DNA from: Candidatus Moraniibacteriota bacterium
GTDB lineage: Bacteria; Patescibacteriota; Minisyncoccia; Moranbacterales; UBA1568
Reading direction: 5' to 3'
Assembly: GCA_016699385.1 (NCBI GenBank)
Contig: CP064974.1
Span: forward strand, 890,617 to 954,616
DNA length: 64,000 nt
Below the pieces are notes generated by a model. The model ran no database searches, was not told the DNA's origin, and saw only the letters and a program-made list of their open reading frames with translations. Shown here one piece after another: positions 3,420 through 53,877 of this stretch (position 1 is its first letter; every line of letters begins with the position of its first letter). Made by a program: the position numbers and the translations under genes.

Positions 3420-4829
3420 TCATTTCCTTTCCACCTGACCAATCCGGCTTTCAGCAGTCGAGAGCGATTGATTGATAGTTGCTTCACCGAGATTAATGGA
3501 CGTAATCATATCGGCCAAGATTTTCTCGATACTTTCCGGATCAGATTGCTTCCAGTTGCGTGTGATGAGGTTGCCATCAGCAAACGGTCCGAGAATTGGG
3601 TCGGTTTTTTGCTTTTCCACCAAGTCACGGCGAGCTGCTGGTGCACCGGTTTTCTCGAGATAGGTCGCCGCCGGGTCAAATGTGCTTGTAAAATCTTTGG
3701 CATTTCCGGTAATCGCATTTTGCAAATGCACCGTGCCTGTTGGCGGAAACGCCGCATATTTCAAGAACTGCCATGATTCAAAAGTTCGTATCTTGTCAAA
3801 AAGCGCCAAATCTTTCGTTCCCGCTGGAGCCGTCTTGTTCTTGGCAACGACAAATCCCCAGTAGTTTGGGAAATTAAAGGGCTGCGCCCCCGTTGACTGT
3901 GGCAAGGGAGCTACGGCAAAATTCAGTTTCGAGTTTTTGCGCTTGATGGTGTCATAGTGCCATGAATAGTTTATCATCATTGCCGCTGTTCCCTCATAAA
4001 ATGCGTCTATTGAGTAGTGCATACGCGGATTCCACGTGTAGAGCGACGAGGTCGGATTGGCAAACTGCGTATAGAAGGTAAGCGCATTCACGCCTGCCGC
4101 CGCATTCAAGCGGAGATCGCGTCCATTCCCGCGCGGAACCAAGACGCCATTTTGTAAGAGGAGTGCCGAAAGCACATCCGTCGAACGATTAATGTTCCCC
4201 GCTGTCCCGAGTGCCGCGCCTGATTGCGTAATCTCACCAAACGAATTGATGCGTGTGAGGAGTCGCACATCATCCTGAAACTGATCCCATGTAGCAGGAG
4301 GCGCCGTAATACCCGCTGCCCCCAAAAGATCCTTGTTATAGTAGAGCGCGAGCGAATCCGAAGAGAGCGCCACACCAGTAATCTTCCCCTCATCCGTCAC
4401 GAAGTCATCGCCCACTGTATCAACAAACGCATTCCGATAACTTCGCTCATCTATGAGTGTATCGGGCGCCATGACAATCTTGTCGGCAAAAGCGGGCGTC
4501 CACGAATTTCGAATAAGGAAAATATCCGGACCATTCCCCGCTGCAAGCGCATCAAGAAGATCCTGCCGATACGTATCAACCGCGAGCTTCCGATACGTGA
4601 CATTGCCTACATTCGGATTGAGATTCTTGTATTGCCCAATAACCTGACGGAGTGCTTCTGAATCATCAAAAATCCCCCATATCTCGAGGTTCATCTTATA
4701 AGCTGTATCCGTCTGTCGGAGTCCGCATCCGGAAAGCAATAACACTATCGCACCGAGAATCGCTCCTGAAAAAATTCTAGCAAGAATCTTCTTCATACCG
4801 ACATTTTTATTTTTGATTCCCTTTTTCAT
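3420..4829 (-). CDS. ABC-transporter extracellular solute-binding protein (family-1, sugar type) lipoprotein; orphan with no permease/ATPase adjacent
   Basis: 469 aa with lipoprotein signal LLSGCG. The overall sequence resembles periplasmic sugar-binding proteins. Alternative start MKKILARIF at 4796. Confidence 0.75.
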   Translation of the reverse strand: MKKGIKNKNVGMKKILARIFSGAILGAIVLLLSGCGLRQTDTAYKMNLEIWGIFDDSEALRQVIGQYKNLNPNVGNVTYRKLAVDTYRQDLLDALAAGNGPDIFLIRNSWTPAFADKIVMAPDTLIDERSYRNAFVDTVGDDFVTDEGKITGVALSSDSLALYYNKDLLGAAGITAPPATWDQFQDDVRLLTRINSFGEITQSGAALGTAGNINRSTDVLSALLLQNGVLVPRGNGRDLRLNAAAGVNALTFYTQFANPTSSLYTWNPRMHYSIDAFYEGTAAMMINYSWHYDTIKRKNSKLNFAVAPLPQSTGAQPFNFPNYWGFVVAKNKTAPAGTKDLALFDKIRTFESWQFLKYAAFPPTGTVHLQNAITGNAKDFTSTFDPAATYLEKTGAPAARRDLVEKQKTDPILGPFADGNLITRNWKQSDPESIEKILADMITSINLGEATINQSLSTAESRIGQVERK

Positions 4830-5452: not shown

Positions 5453-5556
5453 GAGCGTTTAACGCAGAAATGTGCCAAACACGCATATCTAAATAGTTGC
5501 AAAAAGAATAGCCTCATTGTACAACAGAAACACCGAGTCAACAAACAACTCGAAAT

Positions 5557-5672
5557 GGAGAGGTCGCAGAGTGAGCAAGTCCCCGCCGAGGCGGGGCTGG
5601 AAAGCGAGCATACCGCATCAAGGATTTGCCCCAGTATTCGCGGGGCGTCCAGTCGAATGATTGGACGAATCC
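5557..5672 (+). pseudogene. Degenerate tRNA-Ser-like element (pseudo-tRNA / tRNA fragment)
   Basis: Its 5' end GGAGAGGTCGCAGAGTG is near-identical to the intact tRNA-Ser downstream, and GGAAAGCGAGCATACCGCA parallels its anticodon/variable arm. It has extra insertions, a 10-nt T-loop-like GTCGAATGAT and no matching 3' acceptor strand. Confidence 0.4.
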
Positions 5673-5763
5673 TTCTGTACGAAGAGAAAAGAGTATTTCC
5701 CGAAGATAAGAGAAGCAACCTCTCTTGAGACAGCAATTGCGAGATGTTCCACAATCAAATCAC

Positions 5764-5848
5764 GGAGAGGTCGCATAGTGGCCGAGTGCACTCGCTTGGA
5801 AAGCGGGCATACCGCAAGGTATCGAGGGTTCGAATCCCTCCCTCTCCG
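5764..5848 (+). tRNA. tRNA-Ser (anticodon GGA)
   Basis: Acceptor GGAGAGG/CCTCTCC, anticodon loop TTGGAAA, long variable arm ATACCGCAAGGTAT, T-arm GAGGGTTCGAATCCCTC. Confidence 0.85.
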
Positions 5849-6036
5849 CAACGAACAAAGTGGGTGAAGAAGGGAGGAAGGAAGCCAAGTACTTGGCTTC
5901 CTTAGGGATGAGAAAGGCGGAGCGATGTTTTGCGAGTGCGCGAAACCGCAAGCCAGGGTCGACCTTGACATAGAGGGTGTTTAACACTATAGTCCTCGCA
6001 GCACATTCCCAAACCCAAACGAGGAGGATCGAAAAG

Positions 6037-6501
6037 ATGACAACGAAAGTTTCTGTTGAACTACACATCGAGCAGGTTCGTGATGGCAGCCACTACAATG
6101 GCTACATGAAGATCGCTAGCACTAAGCTCGACTATGAGCTCGTGTTCGGAGTTCCGATCGCACAGCTCGGCAGCATGGAGCCCGCCAAGGACGAGAGCGA
6201 AATTCGGCGACTCTTCCAGATTACAGTGAAGCGCGACGCAACGAACGTCGAGCTCACGAAGGAAGAGTACGGCTTCTTCTTCCAAATGCTCGTGACGCTC
6301 GCGATGGATTTCTACAGCAATCCGCAGACTCGCGACAGTCAGGAAGGAATGATAGGTCTGATACTCAACGGAAGAGGCCTAATGGCCGGCTTCGGCGTTT
6401 CAGCCTCGATCGGCATGACAAGCAAAGGGTCGTACAACTTCCCGCCGGAAATCTGCGAGATGTTGAGCGCTCCGAAGTTCGGCTGTGCACTGCTCGCGTA
6501 G
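6037..6501 (+). CDS. Hypothetical protein (compositionally atypical, GC-rich third positions)
   Basis: Start MTTKV with a strong GAGGAGGA RBS. Codon usage visibly differs from flanking genes. Confidence 0.55.
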   Translation: MTTKVSVELHIEQVRDGSHYNGYMKIASTKLDYELVFGVPIAQLGSMEPAKDESEIRRLFQITVKRDATNVELTKEEYGFFFQMLVTLAMDFYSNPQTRDSQEGMIGLILNGRGLMAGFGVSASIGMTSKGSYNFPPEICEMLSAPKFGCALLA

Positions 6502-6989
6502 CGAATCGGCACTTTTACTACCAGAGAGCTCCCTACAGACATGTTCTGCTCGGAGCCCTTTTTCAATACCACCAAACTCGAATGGGAACCACCTCGGTCG
6601 CCGCGAAGACGGAGAAATGAGCGACAAGATATAAATGCAAATGATAGACTATGAATAACTCACTCTGGAGGATGAAGCAACGAAGTAAGACAAAAATTTC
6701 CTTTCCATTTTTTGCGGCTCCCCAGACATCCCTCGCCGAAAATGGATAGGTAAGGAAATTTTTGGTTTTGCTCACGCGAGGTACGAGCGTGGCCGAGGTA
6801 CGTACGTCAGGCGTACGAGTTAGTCTTAAAGCTGTCACCCACTTCGCACGTGCAAAGTGAGTTCGCGCAAAGGTTAACACATCACCACATCTGTGAAATA
6901 TCAGCCGCACCCCCTGCTTTTTCAAGTATCTGGTACGGCTGTTTTAGTTTGTACTAAGCCATATTGCCATTTACAGTGGCGGCGTCCAA

Positions 6990-7028
6990 AAGGACAAAAG
7001 AAAAAGGCTGATCTTGGTGAATCAGCCT
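6990..7028 (-). terminator. Rho-independent terminator of the 7074..7997 gene
   Basis: On the minus strand: AGGCTGATTCACCAAGATCAGCCT hairpin followed by TTTTTCTTTTG. Confidence 0.6.
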
Positions 7029-7073
7029 AATGTTGCCCTGTGTAGAGCAGAAAGTTAAACAATCTCGTGAGCA

Positions 7074-7997
7074 CTATTCTTTCATCACGATGCGCTCTAC
7101 CTGTCTGCGTAGTTGGATCAACTCATGGGTAGCTGGTCCCCAATTTTGAAGGAAAAGCCTTGGATGGAATTCAAAAATGAAGGGGCATTTCGTCTCTCCC
7201 ATAATCTCAACCACACGAACAAGGAAGTTTGCAGGATCGCCTTTTAAGAAACCATCCAGTTCTTCCCGATCGTTTCTTCGCTCGGGTTGGAGTTGAACTC
7301 CGATGAACCGTGTCTTGTTCCATCTAATCCATGTCAGGATTTCTTCGGTAGTGACGCCCTCGAATTTGCGGATGTGATGAGTATCTAACATCAGCGGCAT
7401 TTTAAGGTCAATCAGATCGTTAAGTGAATCGGCATTCTTTGGCGAAGTTTCCTCTGCCGATGTGGCACTGTCCGCCAAAATTCCACGAGTATCGATTTGA
7501 AGCGCGCGAGGATAGTGACGAGACAGATACAGCAACGCCTTCCATGTTCGCTTTCTCCTTGCAGAGAAGAGAATCAAATCGAAGATAGGCCAGTAACCGT
7601 CTATTTTCATGAATATCCAGTGAAGCCGTCTCGGATTGAGATACCATGGTCCCATGCCATCCTGCGCTTTTTCATGAGGAAAGGCTGTTTCCAAAGAGAT
7701 CACCTCGACGCTTTTTGGAAGTATCCACGAAAGTATTGATACCCAAAAACAACGAGTGGGGGTGAGTTGTACGCCCATGTCGGCCCGTTTGATTCTTTGG
7801 AAAATACTCCAATAGCCGAAAACCGGGATGAGGAAACGAGGGAAAAAGGACAAAACAGAGATACCAACACGCGGCTGTTCGCTACTGTGGTGTTGCATCT
7901 GCAAACTCCTCTGTAACTGACGTCTAAATTTGGAAGTTACTGTGTCTCTGCAGTCAATCAGCGATACAAAGGGAATACTGACAACAGGACAATCCAT
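7074..7997 (-). CDS. Hypothetical protein (possibly membrane-associated at the N-terminus)
   Basis: 307-aa ORF followed by a clean terminator. No family recognised by eye. Compositionally similar to 6037..6501. Confidence 0.5.
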   Translation of the reverse strand: MDCPVVSIPFVSLIDCRDTVTSKFRRQLQRSLQMQHHSSEQPRVGISVLSFFPRFLIPVFGYWSIFQRIKRADMGVQLTPTRCFWVSILSWILPKSVEVISLETAFPHEKAQDGMGPWYLNPRRLHWIFMKIDGYWPIFDLILFSARRKRTWKALLYLSRHYPRALQIDTRGILADSATSAEETSPKNADSLNDLIDLKMPLMLDTHHIRKFEGVTTEEILTWIRWNKTRFIGVQLQPERRNDREELDGFLKGDPANFLVRVVEIMGETKCPFIFEFHPRLFLQNWGPATHELIQLRRQVERIVMKE

Positions 7998-8499
7998 TTG
8001 AACATAATTTTAGATCCGTGTCAATGATAGCATATGCATATGTTTTTTCAAAAATTTACCGTACGATCATAGGTACTTGGTGGAGTACTGGATATTGAAG
8101 CACATACGTTCTCACTTCGTCCCACCCCTTCCGCCAATAGCAGATAGCACGAGATTTAAGTTTATGGATGCCTCTAAAAGAAGAAGGGGTCAAACACTAT
8201 CAATGCGGTGGGTGTTTTTTTGTTGCTTTGCCTGATACGTTTTCCAGCGATGCAGCACTGATTAAGAAATCATTAACGAAGTAAGATTTTTGAAAAATAA
8301 AATTGAAAAGTTTGTATACATCTCCTGACGCAATGTATACAAACACATATACTTTGTATACCTTACAGTAAAGATGCCAGCAAACTATGCAAAATATTAA
8401 AATTGGCAAAAATATAGAACAAAAAGAGGGCTTCAAAGCATTTACTCTCAATCCCTTTCCAACAAGAGAAAGTTTTATTTTTGAGCCAAAAATCTTGAA

Positions 8500-9309
8500 A
8501 TGATTAAACCTCATAAACCAATCGACGAAGAAGAATACAAGAATCACCCAGTTTTCTCCAAATTGGATGAAATATTGATTTTCTATAAAATGCTATCATT
8601 TTCAGTATTTGGCCTCTTAAAACAAGGGGCTGGAGCGACTTGCAATTTCAATATCGATTCATACCTTTATTCCTCAGTCCAAGGAACAATAGAATCTATA
8701 AAATACATACTTAAAAAAGGCCGAATTAACGATGCCTATGCTCTACTTAGAAAATACTACGATTCATCAATTATTAACGTTTATTCCAATTTATATCTAG
8801 CCGATAATTTTACCTTAGAAAATTTTGTTGTAGAAAAAATTGATAATTGGTTGAAAGGAAAAGAAAAACTGCCCGAATATAGAATCATGTCTCAATATAT
8901 CCAAGGGTCAGAAAAACTCCGTAAGATAAATGAAGTGCTATACAGGGATGATCGATATAAAGAAATTCGAGATCGGTGTAATGATCATGCACATTACAAT
9001 TTTTATCAGAATGTCCTACTTAACGACAACGAGATATACCTGGAAAACAACATAGAAGCACTAAGTGTTTTTTTAAACGATATCGAACAACTTTTCATTC
9101 TGCATTTAGCATATATATTTTATCTCAATGGGCACTACATGATGTCTAGCGATTACACAGACTGCTTAGATATTGGTATAACTCCTCCAGAAGAATCTCA
9201 GTATTACGTTGCTCCATTTGTACAGAAAGCTTTTGATGATTTTATAAAAGAAAAAAGATTAGATTTAGCCGAAACTATAAGATTAAGTACAGAAATGAAG
9301 TTAACATAG
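8500..9309 (+). CDS. Hypothetical protein in a strongly AT-rich islet; possible HEPN-like R-x5-H motif (RDRCNDH)
   Basis: 269-aa ORF with markedly lower GC than its surroundings. Rich in N/K/Y/I. The motif is only suggestive. Confidence 0.5.
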   Translation: MIKPHKPIDEEEYKNHPVFSKLDEILIFYKMLSFSVFGLLKQGAGATCNFNIDSYLYSSVQGTIESIKYILKKGRINDAYALLRKYYDSSIINVYSNLYLADNFTLENFVVEKIDNWLKGKEKLPEYRIMSQYIQGSEKLRKINEVLYRDDRYKEIRDRCNDHAHYNFYQNVLLNDNEIYLENNIEALSVFLNDIEQLFILHLAYIFYLNGHYMMSSDYTDCLDIGITPPEESQYYVAPFVQKAFDDFIKEKRLDLAETIRLSTEMKLT

Positions 9310-9592
9310 GTGTTTTGAGCTACAGGCATTCACCTATTTAATTCTCCTCTGCTCTTCGCCTAAAACGGAAAACAGAATCGGATTTTTCCTTTGTAAGGAT
9401 AATTTCTTTCAGAAATCAAAGGAAAACATGTACATCATATAACATGGCGTACCTAGTTACGGCTTTTACATAAAAGCTTCCACCTATATTTACCTCCACT
9501 ACACCACGGCAAACATCAAATATGCCGATACGTTATACAAAATTCTGCCCTGCTTGTAGAATATATTCATCATTTAAATTTAAGAAACGTTT

Positions 9593-9883
9593 ATGAAATA
9601 CGGACAATTCACAACTTTCCAGACTGCAGATGGAAAGGTCGAGGAACTGAGAAACATTCTTCTGCAAGCTTCCAAAGAGATGTGCGTTACCAAAAGCTGT
9701 CAGCAATACACAATCGGTAGCGACAAGGAAGCCGCGAATACTCTTCACGTATTCGAAGTATGGGAAACCAAGGAAGATCATGATTCATCTCTGAATTCAG
9801 AAGAAGCCAAAGAACTCATCAGCAAAGCAATGCCACTTTTAGCAGGCAGACCTCAAAGCGTAGCAATGGAAATAAGCGAGTAG
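9593..9883 (+). CDS. Antibiotic-biosynthesis-monooxygenase (ABM/Dabb) domain protein
   Basis: 96 aa. Pattern LHVFEVWETKEDHD...HL is typical of ABM ferredoxin-like fold proteins. Confidence 0.6.
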   Translation: MKYGQFTTFQTADGKVEELRNILLQASKEMCVTKSCQQYTIGSDKEAANTLHVFEVWETKEDHDSSLNSEEAKELISKAMPLLAGRPQSVAMEISE

Positions 9884-9983: not shown

Positions 9984-10922
9984 ATGCACAAACGTTATGA
10001 AGCCCCGCTTCGCGCGTGCGTCGGTCATAAAAATCCCGTTATGCTCCCCTACAAACACGAATACGACGCCTTTGGATCACATTGGGAAATCACGGTGTGG
10101 GACGCGATTTCAGAACAGGATTTCAGAACGATGACACAAGAAATACTTAGAAGATCAGATCAATTCGAACAATATTTCTCTCGTTTCATCCCGACGTCAC
10201 TCGTCTCGCGCATCGCGACCGAGAAGCAGACAGGCGCTCTCGAAGTGCCCGCTGACTTCACAGCAATGCTTCGTCCCTACATACACCTCTATGAGGCGAC
10301 AGCAGGGAAAATCACGCCCCTCGTCGGACACACCCTCTCCGATCTCGGCTACGATGCCGACTACTCACTCACGCCAAGAGAGATCATCCGGCTCTCCCCT
10401 GATCTCTTGGAAACGGTCACCATCCTCGACGACACGAGCATTTCTCTCAAGTGCCCCGTCCTCTTTGACTTCGGCGCGATTGGCAAGGGCTACTTCTGCG
10501 ATCGTATTGCGGACTTCTTGCGTGAGGAACACGTCGAACAATTCCTTGTCAATGGAAGCGGCGACATCGTCTATGAAAGCACTGGCATGCCGATACAGGT
10601 CGGGATCGAGCATCCGGGCGACGCAACCAAAGTCGTCGGATCAGTCGAAATGACCCGAGGCGCCCTGTGTGCAAGTGGCACCAATCGCCGCCGCTGGCGA
10701 AATCATCACCACATCATCGACCCTGACACCACCGAGTCCCCCGAGCAATTCCTCGCTACCTGGGTCATCGCCGAAAATGCCGCGCTCGCCGATATCCTTG
10801 CAACCGCCCTCTTCCTCGCCAAGCCAGACGCCCTCCGAAAGGTCTATCCCTTCGAATACGCCACACTCGACACAGACCTCACCCTCCGCCAATCCCCAGA
10901 CTTCCAAGCAGCAACATACTGA
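9984..10922 (+). CDS. apbE: FAD:protein FMN transferase (ApbE family)
   Basis: GAIGKGY and HHIIDP motifs. 312 aa with an alternative start at 10041 (MLPYKH). No obvious signal peptide. Confidence 0.8.
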   Translation: MHKRYEAPLRACVGHKNPVMLPYKHEYDAFGSHWEITVWDAISEQDFRTMTQEILRRSDQFEQYFSRFIPTSLVSRIATEKQTGALEVPADFTAMLRPYIHLYEATAGKITPLVGHTLSDLGYDADYSLTPREIIRLSPDLLETVTILDDTSISLKCPVLFDFGAIGKGYFCDRIADFLREEHVEQFLVNGSGDIVYESTGMPIQVGIEHPGDATKVVGSVEMTRGALCASGTNRRRWRNHHHIIDPDTTESPEQFLATWVIAENAALADILATALFLAKPDALRKVYPFEYATLDTDLTLRQSPDFQAATY

Positions 10923-11011
10923 TATCAAAGAAATACAATTACATAAGCCAAAACAACAACGGACACTGCCAAAAACAGTGTCCGCCTTTATACCAAAAGT
11001 TTCCGAATACT

Positions 11012-11548
11012 CTATCCCTTTGCCTCTACCTTAATCTTCTCAAGCGCATCCATGAAGCCTTTCGGGGTGAGTGACGAGCCATTCACGACGGCAAGATCGA
11101 GCGAATCTATTGATTTGCCTGTCACAGCAGTCGAAACCCCTTCAGCGAACTGCTTTTGCATATACTGGCTCTTCGGATTCTCGGATTCCTCTGTCGAGGC
11201 AACCTCGGTGACCACTCCACCCTTCAGTGTCAGCGTCACCGTAATATGCTCCGGTCCCGCGGGAGACGTATACTCACCGAGCGCGGTATATGTCCCATCG
11301 GTATACGATACGCCCTCATCAGCCTTCATCATTCTACTTTTTGCATCGGAAGGCTCTTTCTGAGAGCTGTCCGGAAGCATCTTATCATTTGATCGCCCCA
11401 AGAACCAGGCAAGCACTCCGCCAAAAATCGCCACCATTGCGATACCGCCAAACAATCTCGATCCGTTCGAAACCATTTTTCCATTCGATGACATTGACGC
11501 TTCCGAACCTTCTTCCGAAGAAGCCTCTTTCTGTGTATCTTCACTCAT
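11012..11548 (-). CDS. Membrane-anchored FMN-binding-domain protein (likely ApbE flavinylation substrate)
   Basis: Acidic Ser/Glu-rich N-terminus, one TM helix, then an FMN_bind-like domain (YTDGTYTALGEYTSPAGP...LAVVNGSSLTPKGF). Confidence 0.6.
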   Translation of the reverse strand: MSEDTQKEASSEEGSEASMSSNGKMVSNGSRLFGGIAMVAIFGGVLAWFLGRSNDKMLPDSSQKEPSDAKSRMMKADEGVSYTDGTYTALGEYTSPAGPEHITVTLTLKGGVVTEVASTEESENPKSQYMQKQFAEGVSTAVTGKSIDSLDLAVVNGSSLTPKGFMDALEKIKVEAKG

Positions 11549-11765
11549 AAGAAAAACCTAAAGAAATAATATGGGATTTTTTTCCTAAAAGCCCACTAAG
11601 AAACAACGCCAAGATAATGAAACCTTCTTGCAAAAAGAAGAATCGAAGGCGAATGACAGTATACCACACGAAAATATCGATACACAAAAACGCCTTTACA
11701 GAGCCACAGGAAAGATGCTACAGTAACCGGAGACGACAGAAACACAAAGTCTTTTTTCCCTTTCT

Positions 11766-31351: not shown

Positions 31352-31436
31352 GGGGATATGGTGGAATTGGTATACACACACGTTTGAGGGGCGTGGCCCT
31401 TGTGGCATGAGGGTTCGAGTCCCTCTATCCCCACCA
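31352..31436 (+). tRNA. tRNA-Leu (anticodon GAG), CCA encoded
   Basis: GGGGATA acceptor, anticodon loop TTGAGGG, long variable arm CCCTTGTGGCATG, T-arm AGGGTTCGAGTCCCT, 3' CACCA. Confidence 0.8.
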
Positions 31437-31440
31437 ATCA

Positions 31441-31476
31441 GAAAAGCCGAGGGATTTCCCCTTGGCTTTTTCTTTA
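31441..31476 (+). terminator. Putative terminator after tRNA-Leu(GAG)
   Basis: AAAAGCCGAGGGATTTCCCCTTGGCTTTTTCTTTATTT. Confidence 0.5.
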
Positions 31477-31503
31477 TTTCTGCTATTCTTCTACCCAGAA
31501 AGC

Positions 31504-31580
31504 GGACGATTAGCTCAGTTGGTTAGAGCGCCTCGTTTACACCGAGGAGGCCGCTGGTTCGAGTCCAGCATCGTCCACCA
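31504..31580 (+). tRNA. tRNA-Val (anticodon TAC), CCA encoded
   Basis: GGACGAT/ATCGTCC acceptor, D-arm AGCTCAGTTGGTTAGAGC, anticodon loop TTTACAC, T-arm GCTGGTTCGAGTCCAGC. Confidence 0.85.
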
Positions 31581-31656
31581 CATTTGATTGGTGATAATTT
31601 CTCTGCTACAGTGTGGAAGTCAGGGAGAGTATTCCCTGTTTTCCGTTGTTCCTTTT

Positions 31657-31728
31657 GCCGAGGTAGCTCAGTGGTAGAGCAGAAGACTGAAAATCTTCGT
31701 GTCGGGAGTTCGATTCTCCCCCTCGGCA
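31657..31728 (+). tRNA. tRNA-Phe (anticodon GAA)
   Basis: GCCGAGG/CCTCGGC acceptor, anticodon loop CTGAAAA, T-arm GGGAGTTCGATTCTCCC. Confidence 0.85.
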
Positions 31729-31752
31729 CAGTAGAAGTTTGAGGTATCAAAA

Positions 31753-31824
31753 CAGAAGAATGAAAATCTTCGTGTTGGGAGTTCCCCGCCTACCGGCAGG
31801 CAGGGATTCTCCCTCTCGGCACCA
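31753..31824 (+). pseudogene. 3'-partial duplicate of tRNA-Phe (anticodon arm to CCA) with a ~20-nt insertion in the T-arm
   Basis: CAGAAGAATGAAAATCTTCGTGTTGGGAGTTC[CCCGCCTACCGGCAGGCAGGG]ATTCTCCCTCTCGGCACCA aligns to the 3' two-thirds of tRNA-Phe. No 5' acceptor or D-arm is present. Confidence 0.6.
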
Positions 31825-31837
31825 TTCACTTCATCCA

Positions 31838-31909
31838 GGGACCGTAGCTCAGCGGTAGAGCAGGGGACTCATAATCTCTTGGTCGCTGGTTCGAATCCAG
31901 CCGGTCCCA
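31838..31909 (+). tRNA. tRNA-Met (anticodon CAT)
   Basis: GGGACCG/CGGTCCC acceptor, anticodon loop CTCATAA, T-arm GCTGGTTCGAATCCAGC. Confidence 0.8.
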
Positions 31910-32063
31910 CGTTAGTATCCTATCTCGAAAGCTTTACTCAACAGAGAATTGATTTTCACCCCTCTAGCCCTCGAAGGAATTGCAAAAAACTGATATTTCC
32001 GATAAGATAAGGGCGATTTGAACAATTCAAAGAATTCCAGTCTCTCAGAAGAGTTCACAACAC

Positions 32064-32135
32064 GCGGGTATCGTATAGCGGCTATTATGTAACCTTGCCA
32101 AGGTTAAGATACGGGTTCGACTCCCGTTACCCGCT
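32064..32135 (+). tRNA. tRNA-Gly (anticodon GCC)
   Basis: GCGGGTA/TACCCGC acceptor, anticodon loop TTGCCAA, T-arm ACGGGTTCGACTCCCGT. Confidence 0.85.
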
Positions 32136-32295
32136 CACAAGAAGTAACGCCGTCCCATTTGGGGCGGTTTTGCTTTTTCGCGGTAAAGAGGAGTCGAACT
32201 GGAAAGGGGTCGGGGAAACATTTGTTTTCCAGTCTGGAATAACAGAGTCTTCGAGGATTAGAGGGCGGAACGGAACCGCCAATTGGCGGTGAGCA

Positions 32296-34896: not shown

Positions 34897-34970
34897 GGTC
34901 GGATGCCCGAGTGGTCAGGGAGAGGTCTGCAAAACCTTGCACAGGAGTTCGATTCTCCTTCCGACCTCCA
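34897..34970 (+). tRNA. tRNA-Cys (anticodon GCA), CCA encoded
   Basis: GGTCGGA/TCCGACC acceptor, anticodon loop CTGCAAA, T-arm AGGAGTTCGATTCTCCT, 3' TCCA. Confidence 0.8.
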
Positions 34971-34993
34971 AATATGCACGAGGAAAATCCATC

Positions 34994-35079
34994 GGGCGAG
35001 TGGCGGAATTGGTAGACGCGGCGGACTTAAAATTCGCTGTCCCTCACCGGACTTGAGGGTTCGAGTCCCTCCTTGCCCA
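34994..35079 (+). tRNA. tRNA-Leu (anticodon TAA)
   Basis: GGGCGAG/CTTGCCC acceptor, D-arm GGCGGAATTGGTAGACGC, anticodon loop CTTAAAA, long variable arm, T-arm GAGGGTTCGAGTCCCTC. Confidence 0.85.
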
Positions 35080-35167
35080 CAGAAAAATATTACTTGAAGA
35101 TTTCAAAGTCAAATCGGTTCTTTACACTTCCATTGAAAATCCATCCAACGGCAAGAAGGAGTACCTC

Positions 35168-51765: not shown

Positions 51766-53877
51766 ATGCAAGAACAGAAATGGTCCCTCCAAATCGGAGG
51801 ACGCGTCCTTGAGCTCTCGACTGGACTCCTCGCAGGACAAGCAAATGGCGCTGTTCGCGCTCAATATGGCGACACTGTCGTCCTCGCAACCGCCGTCATG
51901 GGCAAGAATCCCTCGAATATTTCGGGGTATTTCCCACTTCTCGTCGACTACGAAGAGCGCTATTACGCTGCCGGAAAAATAAAAGGGTCTCGTTTTGTAA
52001 AGCGAGAGGGGCGTCCCTCTGATGATGCCGTCCTCACCGGACGTGCCGTCGACCGCACAATTCGCCCACTCTTTAATGCGCGAATGAGAAACGACGTACA
52101 GGTTATCGTTACAACACTCTCATTTGACGGTGAGAATGATCCCGATACGATTGGTATGATTGCCGCTTCCGCCGCACTCGCCCTCTCAGATATTCCTTGG
52201 AATGGACCAATTGGTGCTGTCCGCGTCGGCAAAATAAATGAGAATTTCATTCTCAATCCCATAAACGGCGAGCGAACCGAGAGTGACCTTGACCTTCTCA
52301 TCGCTGGAACAAACGAGAAGGTGAATATGATGGAAGTTTCCGCCAAAGAAGTGCCGGAATCTATCATGATAGAAGCCTTTGCCTTTGGTTTCGAAGCTGT
52401 CAAGAAAATCGCCGATTTTGTCGAATCGATACAGAAAGAGGTTGGAAAAGAAAAGCTTGTGCCAACACTCCTCGAAGCACCAAAAGAAGTCGAAACCGAC
52501 ATCCGTCGATGGTTTGAAGAGAAAGGTCTCGCTCAAGCACTCTATCTCAAAGGGAAGAAAGAGACCTACGATCAACTTCGCGAGATTCGCGAGTATGTCG
52601 ATGAAAAAATAGGTGAAACCTACGCGAATATTCCAAAAATCCGCGAAGTCACTGAACAGGTCTTCGAAGAGCTCTCCGATGAAATCGTGCATGAAAATGT
52701 CTTAAAAAATGAGAAGCGCCCAGATGGACGCGCACTCACCGAGATTCGACCCATCTCGTGCCAGGTTGGTATACTTCCGCGCACACACGGCACGGGACTC
52801 TTTACCCGCGGTGAGACACAAGCGCTCACTGTCGCCACTCTCGGCTCCCCAGGCGATGAGCAAATCATCGACACTATGGAAGTCGACATGAAGAAGCGAT
52901 ACATCCACCACTACAATTTCCCCCCATATTCTGTTGGTGAAGTAAAGCCGATGCGCGGTCCTGGACGGCGCGAAGTGGGACATGGTGCCCTTGCTGAGAA
53001 GGCGCTTGTTCCGGTGCTTCCCAGCAAAGAAGACTTCCCATATACCATACTTTTGGTTTCTGAGATACTCTCCTCTAATGGATCATCATCCATGGCATCA
53101 ACCTGCGGATCAACACTCGCCCTCATGGACGCTGGCGTGCCGATATCAGCACCTGTCTCCGGCATCGCTATGGGCATCATTGTTGGCGACGAGAAAAACT
53201 ACAAAGTACTGACCGATATCCAGGGACTCGAAGATCACTACGGCGACATGGACTTCAAAGCCGCTGGAACCACCAAGGGACTTACAGCAATCCAAATGGA
53301 TGTAAAGGTAGATGGCGTCACGCTCGAAATGCTTGAAGCTGTACTCATGCAAGCAAAGGGAAATCGTGCCGACATCCTCGGAAAAATGCTCGCGACACTC
53401 CCTCAGGCACGCACCAACCTTTCACCATACGCACCACGCATCATCGTACTCCATATCAATCCAGAGAAAATCCGCGATGTTATCGGGCCAGGTGGCAAGA
53501 TGATCAATCGCATCATCGATGAAACCGGCGTCGAAATCGATATCGAAGACGACGGCTCCGTCTTCGTCACATCTCCAGATGAAATAAGCTCCAAAAAGGC
53601 TGTTGAATGGATCAACAATCTCACGCGCGAAGTAAAGCCGGGCGAACTCTTCCAAGGTCGAGTCACGCGTCTCATGAATTTCGGGGCTTTTGTTGAAGTA
53701 CTCCCAAATCAAGAAGGGCTTGTCCATATCTCCGAGCTCGCCGAGCAACGAGTCGAGCGCGTCGAAGATATTGTACAAGTGGGCGATATTATCCCTGTCA
53801 TTGTGAAGAATATCGACGACCAAGGTCGCATCAATCTCTCAAGAAAAGCCGCTTTGGGAAAAACGATTACTGAGTAA
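51766..53877 (+). CDS. pnp: Polyribonucleotide nucleotidyltransferase (PNPase)
   Basis: Start MQEQKWSL. Two RNase PH domains followed by C-terminal KH and S1 domains ([15 protein letters not shown]). Confidence 0.95.

Follow-up and report, generated by a model that had tools for sequence, protein, structure and literature searches.

The window analysed here, 64,000 nucleotides of contig CP064974.1 of a Candidatus Moraniibacteriota bacterium, contains an intact tRNA-Ser(GGA) gene with a degenerate partial copy just upstream and an islet of variable genes just downstream. Judged from its sequence, the upstream segment (5557-5763) is what decay has left of a small, selfish nuclease cassette, and this tRNA pseudo-copy reveals a family of tRNA-splitting cassettes, made up of a GIY-YIG nuclease open reading frame (ORF) and a double-hairpin module, that is apparently undescribed in bacteria. 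The islet downstream is real as well, and consists of variable cargo at a hotspot beside the tRNA. We consider it likely that two independent kinds of mobile DNA have acted on this locus: the cassette, now reduced to a relic, and the variable region with its module encoding a 269-amino-acid (aa) protein.

An apparent cassette relic upstream of tRNA-Ser(GGA)

A sequence-only reading of the window had described an intact tRNA-Ser(GGA) gene preceded, at about 90 bp, by a degenerate copy, and both are present (Table 1). The tRNA-derived element begins at 5557, ends some 80-90 nt before the intact gene, and in alignment shares two stretches with it, GGAGAGGTCGCA.AGTG and TGGAAAGCG.GCATACCGCA. Identity between the 5' fragment (5557..5628) and the intact tRNA is ~68% with indels counted, and two direct repeats connect them: D2, spanning the first 24 nt of the tRNA (83%), and D3, reaching from the anticodon loop to the variable arm (95%). 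Taken as a tRNA in its own right, the upstream copy (5557-5675) receives no ARAGORN call and has no Rfam match up to E = 5; its acceptor 3' strand is absent, so it falls outside the tRNA family. An intron-containing or split tRNA was considered and rejected, given the absent acceptor 3' strand and the damaged D-arm of a full-length copy at another locus (L087; loci in other genomes are given L numbers). A displaced tRNA 3' fragment was searched for in the window and not found. The intact gene is the functional copy paired with the cassette, and over its first 71 nt the broken tRNA copies of two related loci, L013 and L084, match it at 100%.

Two insertions depart from the tRNA sequence. The first is a small extra hairpin, CCCCGCCGAGGCGGGG, which resembles in type the hairpins in the D-loop of the L034 cassette described below; similar hairpins occur in L034 and L078. 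The second is a double hairpin placed in the T-loop between TT(C/T)G and GAATCC, with a fold z-score of -4.8. It is homologous to the insertion in the corresponding fragment of L013, with a compensatory change in the second hairpin. The window holds no second copy of the module: the other match to its covariance model (R1), at 52005-52072, is at chance level (E 0.56).

Beyond the double hairpin and a short remnant of the T-loop and T-stem lies a coding remnant. In a tblastn search with the ORF of L084, residues 61-91 match window positions 5680-5775 with 59% identity and one stop (E 2e-5), and the frame of this GIY-YIG remnant continues into tRNA-Ser. Judged from this alignment, ~200 nt of the nuclease ORF are deleted in the window, and the tRNA fragment has degenerated as well. 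Because the last third of the GIY-YIG ORF is kept with these ~200 nt missing, 5557-5763 reads as a decayed cassette; because the upstream 5' fragment, the T-loop double hairpin and the GIY-YIG remnant occur together, it reads as the relic of a separate, small nuclease cassette.

A conserved block, TTGCAAAAAGAAyAsCCkCATTGTACAAC, precedes tRNA-Ser in 6/6 close relatives. We infer that this block (5497..5525) serves as a promoter, from which pseudo-tRNA, cassette relic and tRNA would be transcribed together as a single unit.

Cassettes in other genomes

Relatives of the locus were retrieved via the methyltransferase gene adjoining tRNA-Ser, and metagenome contigs were scanned with a pattern for the second hairpin of the module; hairpin 1 played no part in that search. 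In the first arrangement of intact cassettes, a tRNA 5' fragment is followed by the double hairpin, GAATCC, ~30 nt, an ORF of 82-96 aa and an intact tRNA of the same identity. This order was found in L081-L084 and L031 (tRNA-Ser) and in L085 (tRNA-Tyr). The nuclease ORF measures ~85 aa in intact cassettes, and the contigs that carry them are of the candidate phyla radiation (CPR) type. An ORF of this kind lies beside the module in 7/15 loci checked (L031, L077, L081-L085). All four ORFs run against Pfam (L082-L085) match GIY-YIG (PF01541) with 38-52 bits, against a cut-off of 22.6; the window keeps residues 61-91 of this domain, as a pseudogene with a stop. The cassette nuclease is a bare GIY-YIG domain without a DNA-binding domain. 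Across 1.09 Mb of loci, every GIY-YIG match (3/3) falls within 28 nt of a tRNA. Identity between the fragment and the 5' part of its intact partner is 100% in L083 and L084, 93% in L031, and 63-75% in L081, L082, L013 and the window.

Other arrangements of the same parts also occur. L077 is a mirror image, in which an intact tRNA-Gly is followed by the ORF, GTTCG and the double hairpin, after which the final 19 nt of the tRNA are repeated perfectly. L087 carries a near full-length pseudo-tRNA-Val with hairpins in its T-loop, 130 nt past the intact copy. L034 is a D-loop variant, in which the GIY-YIG ORF is preceded by the opening 12 nt of the tRNA, a different pair of hairpins within the D-loop, and eight further D-loop nt; it escapes the covariance model of the T-loop module. 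This variant occupies L034:9380-10010 (minus strand), where the D-loop hairpins CCAGCCCGAGGCTGG and TCCGCCTTGGGCGGA and the GIY-YIG ORF accompany an intact tRNA-Ser(CGA) at the same methyltransferase-adjacent tRNA-Ser locus as in the window.

Two further loci hold related sequences. In L081 (cassette orientation, ~608-1054) a second GIY-YIG ORF lies directly past the intact tRNA-Ser, so that nuclease genes stand on both sides of it. In L062 (window orientation, 8188-8228) the long leader before a type B tRNA-Ser resembles the L013 spacer of 31 nt as well as the 3'-terminal part of the GIY-YIG ORF; L062 may also hold a fully decayed cassette.

The closest relatives of the window's locus differ in what they carry at the cassette site. 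L013, the closest by the methyltransferase search, has a 5' fragment of 71 nt, identical to the window's intact tRNA and broken past the TTCG of the T-loop by a 40-nt two-hairpin insert; GAATCCCT follows, and then a different (type B) intact tRNA-Ser. In the flanks of the site L013 and L084 share 98.5% identity on the upstream side and 94.9% on the downstream side. Their interiors differ: that of L084 consists of the ORF, a type A tRNA, its trailer, a stub of hairpin 2 and a native 3' fragment (GAATCCCTCCCTCTCCGCA), and that of L013 of a 31-nt ORF remnant and the type B tRNA. Because near-identical flanks enclose different interiors, the site is, on this sequence comparison, one that turns over within a species. 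L014-L017, with one tRNA and no fragment, represent the empty state of the site, L084 the occupied state, and L013 and the window the decayed one.

Recurrence and covariation of the double-hairpin module

The module is ~40 nt long and consists of two 20-nt hairpins set in the palindromic TTCGAA of the T-loop. The scan with the second-hairpin motif yielded 14 loci, and in 14/14 of them the module stands in the same context, with GGTTCG before hairpin 1 and GAATCC after hairpin 2. R1 also recovers the copies of the window, L013 and L031, the last at the same methyltransferase-adjacent locus in another Moraniibacteriota genome. The module thereby occupies the identical T-loop position in 16 places besides the window, beside tRNAs of at least seven identities (Ser, Tyr, Gly, Pro, Ala, Glu and Val). 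The hairpin motif has zero matches in viral contigs.

Pairing is maintained in 92.5% of cells of a 16-sequence alignment. Two pairs of hairpin 1 occur with three pair types each, one pair of hairpin 2 occurs with all four Watson-Crick types, and the covariation score was reached in 0/500 shuffles. The score of R1 is almost equal on the opposite strand. A single long hairpin, formed by pairing of hairpin 1 with hairpin 2, was ruled out, as the two loops fail to covary.

A model for the cassette, and its alternatives

On the observed architecture, recurrence, hairpin covariation and mixture of occupied, empty and decayed alleles, we offer the following interpretation tentatively, as a serious possibility that falls somewhat short of probable. 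GIY-YIG and double-hairpin cassettes would be an undescribed selfish class in CPR bacteria that invades the TTCGAA of tRNA T-loops (or, in one variant, the D-loop) and survives by way of a replacement tRNA copy; the hairpins would act as a cruciform-type handle for a structure-specific nuclease, with tRNA replacement and insertion hotspots as side effects. A cassette interrupts one tRNA copy, and the intact neighbouring copy would keep the host alive. The nuclease would cut tRNA genes, or hairpin or cruciform DNA; the break would be repaired from the cassette-bearing allele, and the cassette would thus spread by repair-mediated copying. The duplicated part of the tRNA would preserve a working gene. 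We hypothesise that a minimal nuclease without a DNA-binding domain recognises the structure of the DNA, which would fit because TTCGAA is palindromic, the insert is two 20-nt hairpins, and the covariance model scores nearly the same on either strand.

Several points weigh against this interpretation. The activity of the nuclease and its targeting of tRNA genes are predictions from sequence. The intact tRNA beside a cassette keeps an uninterrupted TTCGAA and would itself be open to self-cleavage. As to which copy is native and which is cassette-borne, L013 suggests that the 5' fragment is native, but a second event is needed at that locus. Of the 17 hairpin copies, 9 have no adjacent intact ORF (the window has a C-terminal remnant only), and the module copy shared by L075 and L079 has no tRNA nearby. 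That copy, identical at L075:2374-2439 and L079:3507-3572, sits in a T-loop-like GGGTTCG...GAATCC, with no tRNA or transfer-messenger RNA (tmRNA) gene detected nearby.

The tRNA-like fragment and its hairpins could instead be a functional RNA, such as a leader or a processing or stability element of the nuclease mRNA or the tRNA, with the hairpins under selection at the RNA level. The strong covariation and stable folds would suit this, as would the position of the module within a transcript from the conserved tRNA promoter. We nonetheless regard it as quite unlikely, since the ORF follows the module in one arrangement and precedes it in the other, the near-equal score on the opposite strand is as expected for a DNA palindrome, and no Rfam family matches: at permissive thresholds no known family was found on the pseudo-tRNA, the spacer 6502-7073, the L084 cassette or the L075 copy. 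An RNA-level role and the selfish cassette proposed above are compatible and not mutually exclusive.

The sequence-only reading had seen in the degenerate copy the integration footprint of a mosaic island at tRNA-Ser, that is, a duplicated attachment site of that island. The region 3' of the tRNA is variable, and in L016 this tRNA does serve an integrative element. Yet the copy is a 5' fragment, lies upstream and 80-90 nt off with no element in between, and carries a double hairpin and GIY-YIG remnant of a kind that occurs at many unrelated tRNAs. Moreover, the boundary core of the L016 element, CCGCAAA, is the 3' end of the tRNA and does not involve the T-loop, and the fragment is present in L013 and L084, which lack the islet of the window. 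We consider this origin very improbable. A plain tandem tRNA duplication that decayed with no mobile element involved deserves next to no credence: such duplicates are common and the window copy lacks an intact ORF, but the 40-nt double hairpin at the matching T-loop position beside so many other tRNAs, and the GIY-YIG coding sequence kept in the window, speak against it.

Relation to known systems

The closest parallels to the proposed cassette are mobile endonuclease ORFs (mORFs) of fungal mitochondria, which duplicate part of the invaded gene and make hybrid genes, as in atp6 of Allomyces macrogynus and in atp6, atp9, cox2 and nad3 of Glomus (PMC3630166). In some cases the duplicated part diverges from the native one, a sign of horizontal origin (PMC3630166). 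Like mORFs, the cassettes place a free-standing endonuclease ORF in an essential gene, keep one copy intact through a duplicate, and leave a displaced native fragment beside the ORF; L077 shows the mirror layout of intact gene, ORF and native 3' fragment. An endonuclease ORF thus accompanies a repeat of its target with one intact copy (the 5' repeats of L083 and L084 and the 3' repeat of L077), and occupied and empty alleles exist among close relatives. The host would survive because one interrupted copy adjoins an intact one, which is the logic of mORF-type homing-endonuclease ORFs. Unlike mORFs, the cassettes target a bacterial tRNA gene and not a mitochondrial protein gene, and they break it in the T-loop (in L034 the D-loop) at a point marked by a conserved, covarying double hairpin. 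Their nuclease is a bare ~85-aa GIY-YIG domain, and 5'- and 3'-duplication forms both exist.

A second parallel is SegB of phage T4, a free-standing GIY-YIG homing endonuclease encoded in the T4 tRNA gene cluster (PMC2330249). SegB and the cassettes have in common a GIY-YIG endonuclease gene among tRNA genes, and intronless homing is the mode of SegB. SegB is larger than the cassette nuclease, has its own DNA-binding region, lies between tRNA genes and is phage-borne; we know of no association of SegB with a T-loop double hairpin or a tRNA fragment. The mitochondrial double-hairpin elements of Allomyces, a subject of Paquin, Laforest and Lang, are reportedly short mobile modules of two hairpins in genomes that also contain mobile GIY-YIG ORFs. 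To our knowledge they have not been reported as insertions in tRNA T-loops, and their likeness to the cassette module is one of description alone, a lead. Our literature search, which found SegB and the mitochondrial mORFs, yielded no account of such a cassette in bacteria.

A variable region between tRNA-Ser and DUF4446

All relatives have a variable gap at this locus, framed by the methyltransferase and tRNA-Ser on one side and, on the other, by a DUF4446 gene whose promoter is conserved. The gap from tRNA-Ser to DUF4446 measures 10 nt in L015, 2.2 kb with a NUDIX gene in L017, 5.45 kb in L016 and 5.85 kb in the window; in L013 and L084 it contains an 82-aa ORF, ApbE and an FMN-binding protein. 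The synteny comparison called for by the sequence-only reading thus finds relatives with no insert or with different inserts at the same place, and a gene order that varies among them. In the window the gap has two layers. The inner layer, from 5853 to ~9980, holds the genes for the 154-aa, 307-aa and 269-aa proteins and an ABM-family protein; it is missing from the closest relatives, L013 and L084, and these four genes were found in 0 of ~60 related loci. The older, outer layer (9984..11548) is common to L013 and L084 only and missing in L015, L016 and L017. In adjoining a tRNA and being absent in close relatives, the islet resembles a genomic island.

Two loci bear on the origin of the inner layer. 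L016 carries in its insert the gene for a 540-aa large serine recombinase (domains Resolvase, Recombinase and Zn_ribbon_recom), and the sequences at the boundaries of the element overlap in the core CCGCAAA. Read in the orientation of the tRNA, it runs tRNA, core, recombinase module, inverted full site, cargo, core. L091, a 3.7-kb contig of a second metagenome-assembled genome (GCA_049643625.1), matches window positions 5853-9397 with 3 mismatches in 3545 nt (99.9%) and has different flanks: on the left, 47 nt identical to the full boundary site of L016; on the right, the start of an unrelated ORF. Because L091 reads from inverted full site into islet, just as L016 reads from site into cargo, the islet is placed by this sequence match in the cargo position of an L016-type element. 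The inner layer is best read, from these comparisons, as cargo of a family of large-serine-recombinase elements that use tRNA-Ser. Like tRNA-targeting serine-recombinase elements and islands in general, the window's cargo lies directly 3' of the tRNA, and L016 has both the recombinase and the core; unlike them, the window has neither recombinase nor boundary sites, and L016 has an unusual internal inverted full site.

The boundary sites of L016 are at 4319-4343, 8130-8176 and 9768-9797, the full site lying inside the element in inverted orientation. The recombinase gene and the cargo of L016 are each enclosed by inverted repeats of at least 50 nt, and the recombinase ORF runs antisense across tRNA-Ser; the element could be invertible or composite.

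Against cargo status stand the results from the window itself. Site and profile searches of the window found no recombinase and no recognisable att-like or boundary site, the islet has no integrase and no flanking direct repeats, both of which are present in L016, and the junction between tRNA and islet cannot be derived as a simple serine-recombinase product. The outer layer may have been lost in relatives instead of gained in the window. What survives of the mosaic island proposed by the sequence-only reading is a strain-variable, horizontally exchanged islet, as seen in L013/L084, L016 and L091; the degenerate tRNA copy is not its footprint, and an integrase is lacking.

The islet could also be ancestral and deleted in relatives, the site being a deletion hotspot and not a point of acquisition. 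The missing integrase and att-like repeats would be in keeping with this, as would the commonness of the 154-aa family in Patescibacteria. We find it distinctly unlikely, given that relatives hold different inserts at that point and not gaps alone, that 154-aa homologues elsewhere lie in unrelated contexts, that the 269-aa gene is much more AT-rich than its host with 60-76% identity across phyla, and that L091 joins the islet to a recombinase-element boundary.

A further gene at this hotspot was seen in L031 (window orientation), from ~616 nt past the methyltransferase end, where an ORF beginning MSTKKTLQQQISRDSVTALKYFFEVGYEWIV directly follows the cassette and a tRNA-Ser(CGA). This ORF looks DUF4365- or restriction-endonuclease-like; it would then be a further defence-type gene at the hotspot.

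The 269-aa protein family

The inner layer includes the gene that the sequence-only reading had singled out for an R-x5-H string, RDRCNDH, taken as a HEPN-like motif. The gene and the string are present, and the protein belongs to a large family: 1151 homologues of 60-76% identity across phyla, none with a Pfam domain, and 595 clusters at the 50% identity level in a profile search. Named sources are Aminicenantes, cyanobacteria, Omnitrophota, Parcubacteria and Cloacimonetes. Compared with the host, the gene is AT-rich in 4/4 contexts checked. Homologues have as neighbours YhcG nuclease, KilA-N, HEPN_Cthe2314, TIR, reverse transcriptase and a HEPN/MNT pair, and also DEAD/ResIII helicase, DUF5677, PIN and transposases. 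A conserved two-gene system was considered and rejected, since these neighbours are mutually unrelated and have left no remnant in the AT-rich flanks. As judged from its sequence and distribution, the gene is a stand-alone module of a widely transferred family.

Residues conserved family-wide are D78, L82, R84, D88, R157, N161, H165, N167 and H202. The motif common to the family is R-x2-C-N-[DN]-x2-H-x-N, in which the conserved R157 and H165 are spaced by 7. The claimed motif, R157 to H163, relies on a histidine that varies within the family: among 38 sequences of the broader family H163 is kept in 7 and R159 in 15, so that neither R157-x5-H163 nor R159-x5-H165 holds family-wide. No HEPN profile was matched by the window protein or the 38 relatives (Pfam, E up to 1). 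The structural model is all-alpha (predicted local distance difference test score, pLDDT, 79.7; predicted template modelling score, pTM, 0.81). Foldseek searches of the PDB and BFVD with this model gave chance-level matches only, none with E below 0.2, and a profile search of PDB sequences with the family came back empty. Scanned against Pfam, PADLOC, PHROGs and NCBIfam, the three islet proteins yielded nothing usable, and in PADLOC-DB no match beyond one at chance level (E 0.046).

A weaker similarity leads to DUF5677 (PF18928). Of the 38 distant relatives, 15 match it, with 19.9 bits (E 8.5e-4) at best, where the gathering cut-off is 27.1 bits; no match was obtained with the window protein itself, and an hhalign comparison of the family with the DUF5677 protein of L005 was negative. 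In L005 a true DUF5677 gene follows the 269-aa homologue. A preprint reports an enrichment of DUF5677 next to serine recombinases of the kind that marks defence loci. The 269-aa protein, distantly DUF5677-like by these sequence comparisons, is a candidate effector of defence islands, and the label "DUF5677-like, defence-island-associated" should replace HEPN. The suggestion of a defence or abortive-infection nuclease thus keeps its defence-island-like neighbourhoods and loses its HEPN assignment. Our best guess is that the protein is most likely a stand-alone defence or abortive-infection-type effector; against this stand its derivation from gene neighbourhood only and the outcome reported in the preprint, in which the DUF5677 gene tested (from Enterococcus) was not among the protective ones.

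That the protein is nevertheless a true HEPN RNase acting in abortive infection is unlikely. R159 and H165 form an R-x5-H pair that is invariant in the close subfamily, the model is all-alpha and the neighbours are of defence type; opposed to this are the variable R159 and H163 and the motif spacing of 7 in the wider family, the match of 0/38 members to Pfam HEPN, with DUF5677 sub-threshold only, and the want of any PDB or viral fold match with E below 0.2.

Other features of the locus

Windowed GC content is not uniform. It is 0.32-0.36 over 8000-9600, against 0.471 for the whole window, and the AT-rich block of about 8.0-9.5 kb noticed by the sequence-only reading stands; 5850-8000, at 0.486, resembles the flanks. 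Atypical composition is therefore confined to 8000-9600 and does not extend over the ~3.5 kb originally proposed. A repeat search of the window found no direct repeats flanking the AT-rich block.

Two of the islet genes had been described as rich in GC at third codon positions (GC3), which applies to the 154-aa gene alone and not to the ORF at 7074-7997, which lies on the minus strand (Table 1). The 154-aa protein has 72 homologues of 44-81% identity, the few with a named source being Moraniibacteriota or Minisyncoccia, and elsewhere the family occurs in unrelated gene contexts. In the window the gene has a strong promoter to itself. Its members end in an invariant L-x(3)-K-F-G-C (usually PKFGC), 3-5 residues from the C-terminus, and have a second conserved cysteine, C140; going by these residues the protein could be processed or lipid- or thioether-modified. 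The model is alpha/beta (pLDDT 86), and Foldseek found no PDB match above chance. A weak Peptidase_C39-like gene lies beside the 154-aa homologue in L011.

The 307-aa ORF has one non-self homologue, at 70% identity. That homologue, at L008:373-2278, is convergent with a tRNA-Ser(CGA) ~1 kb off and mirrors the window arrangement. The spacer between the two genes, previously called structured, is only moderately so, with structure z-scores of -1.7 (plus strand) and -3.9 (minus strand); the minus-strand signal comes largely from a terminator and a long inverted repeat.

The window has 13 tRNA genes by ARAGORN, with dense clusters of five in 800 nt (31352-32136) and two in 190 nt (34897-35080). 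A 19-nt direct repeat of 84% identity, ACAACAGAAACACCGAGTC (5521-5539) and ACGACAGAAACACAAAGTC (11733-11751), sits just past the -10 boxes of the tRNA-Ser and DUF4446 promoters, which frame the variable region; it may be a common transcription-start motif, or chance.

Table 1. Features of the tRNA-Ser(GGA) locus and its variable region, in window positions.
Feature	Position	Strand	Basis or remark
Putative tRNA-Ser locus promoter, conserved (TTGCAA, 17 nt, TACAAC)	5497..5525	+	block in relatives
tRNA-Ser(GGA) 5' fragment, degenerate, acceptor 5' strand to T-loop TTTG	5557..5628	+	alignment, repeats
Small extra hairpin CCCCGCCGAGGCGGGG inside pseudo-tRNA	5581..5596	+	alignment gap relative to intact tRNA
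Double-hairpin module (hairpin 1, 5629-5646; hairpin 2, 5647-5666)	5629..5666	+	covariance model R1, 57.7 bits, E 2e-17
Remnant of T-loop 3' half and T-stem 3' strand, GAATCCTTC	5667..5675	+	acceptor 3' strand gone
GIY-YIG nuclease ORF, pseudogene remnant, C-terminal third with in-frame stop	5680..5763	+	tblastn
tRNA-Ser(GGA), intact, type A	5764-5849	+	ARAGORN call; Rfam 53.9 bits
tRNA trailer with hairpin 5877-5900	5853..5917	+	83% identity to L084; start of block 99.9% identical to L091
Promoter (TTGACA, 17 nt, TATAGT)	5965-5993	+	5' of 154-aa gene
154-aa protein gene	6037-6501	+	GC3 0.71; 72 homologues
Noncoding spacer with terminator 7028-7005 (minus-strand gene) and long inverted repeat 6691-6764	6502..7073		no Rfam family
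Rare hypothetical gene, ORF 307 aa (NCBI: 274 aa, 7074-7898)	7074..7997	-	GC3 0.49; promoter-like site 8051-8024
AT-rich block	8000..9590		GC 0.336
269-aa protein gene	8500-9309	+	GC 0.319, GC3 0.289; large conserved family
ABM-family (antibiotic biosynthesis monooxygenase-like) gene, 96 aa	9593..9883	+	last gene of part missing in L013 and L084
ApbE	9984-10922	+	older layer of variable region
FMN-binding-type protein	11012-11548	-	older layer of variable region
Hotspot right border, conserved DUF4446 promoter region CCTTTACAGAGCC...TACAGT	11690..11765	+	abuts tRNA directly in L015

Implications

The tRNA T-loop is the most conserved sequence in biology. If the proposed model is true, a bare nuclease domain of ~85 aa and 40 nt of hairpins colonise it without killing the host. 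The cassette explains odd tRNA pseudogene fragments in CPR genomes that annotation pipelines have passed over. It would also be a mechanism for the lateral exchange of tRNA genes, as in the replacement of type A by type B tRNA-Ser, or the reverse, at one locus, and such cassettes would make tRNA loci hotspots of further insertion. The cassette nuclease is a candidate compact, structure-guided tool. The 269-aa family, with more than 1000 members, very conserved across phyla and without a Pfam model, is a candidate for an undescribed single-gene defence system.

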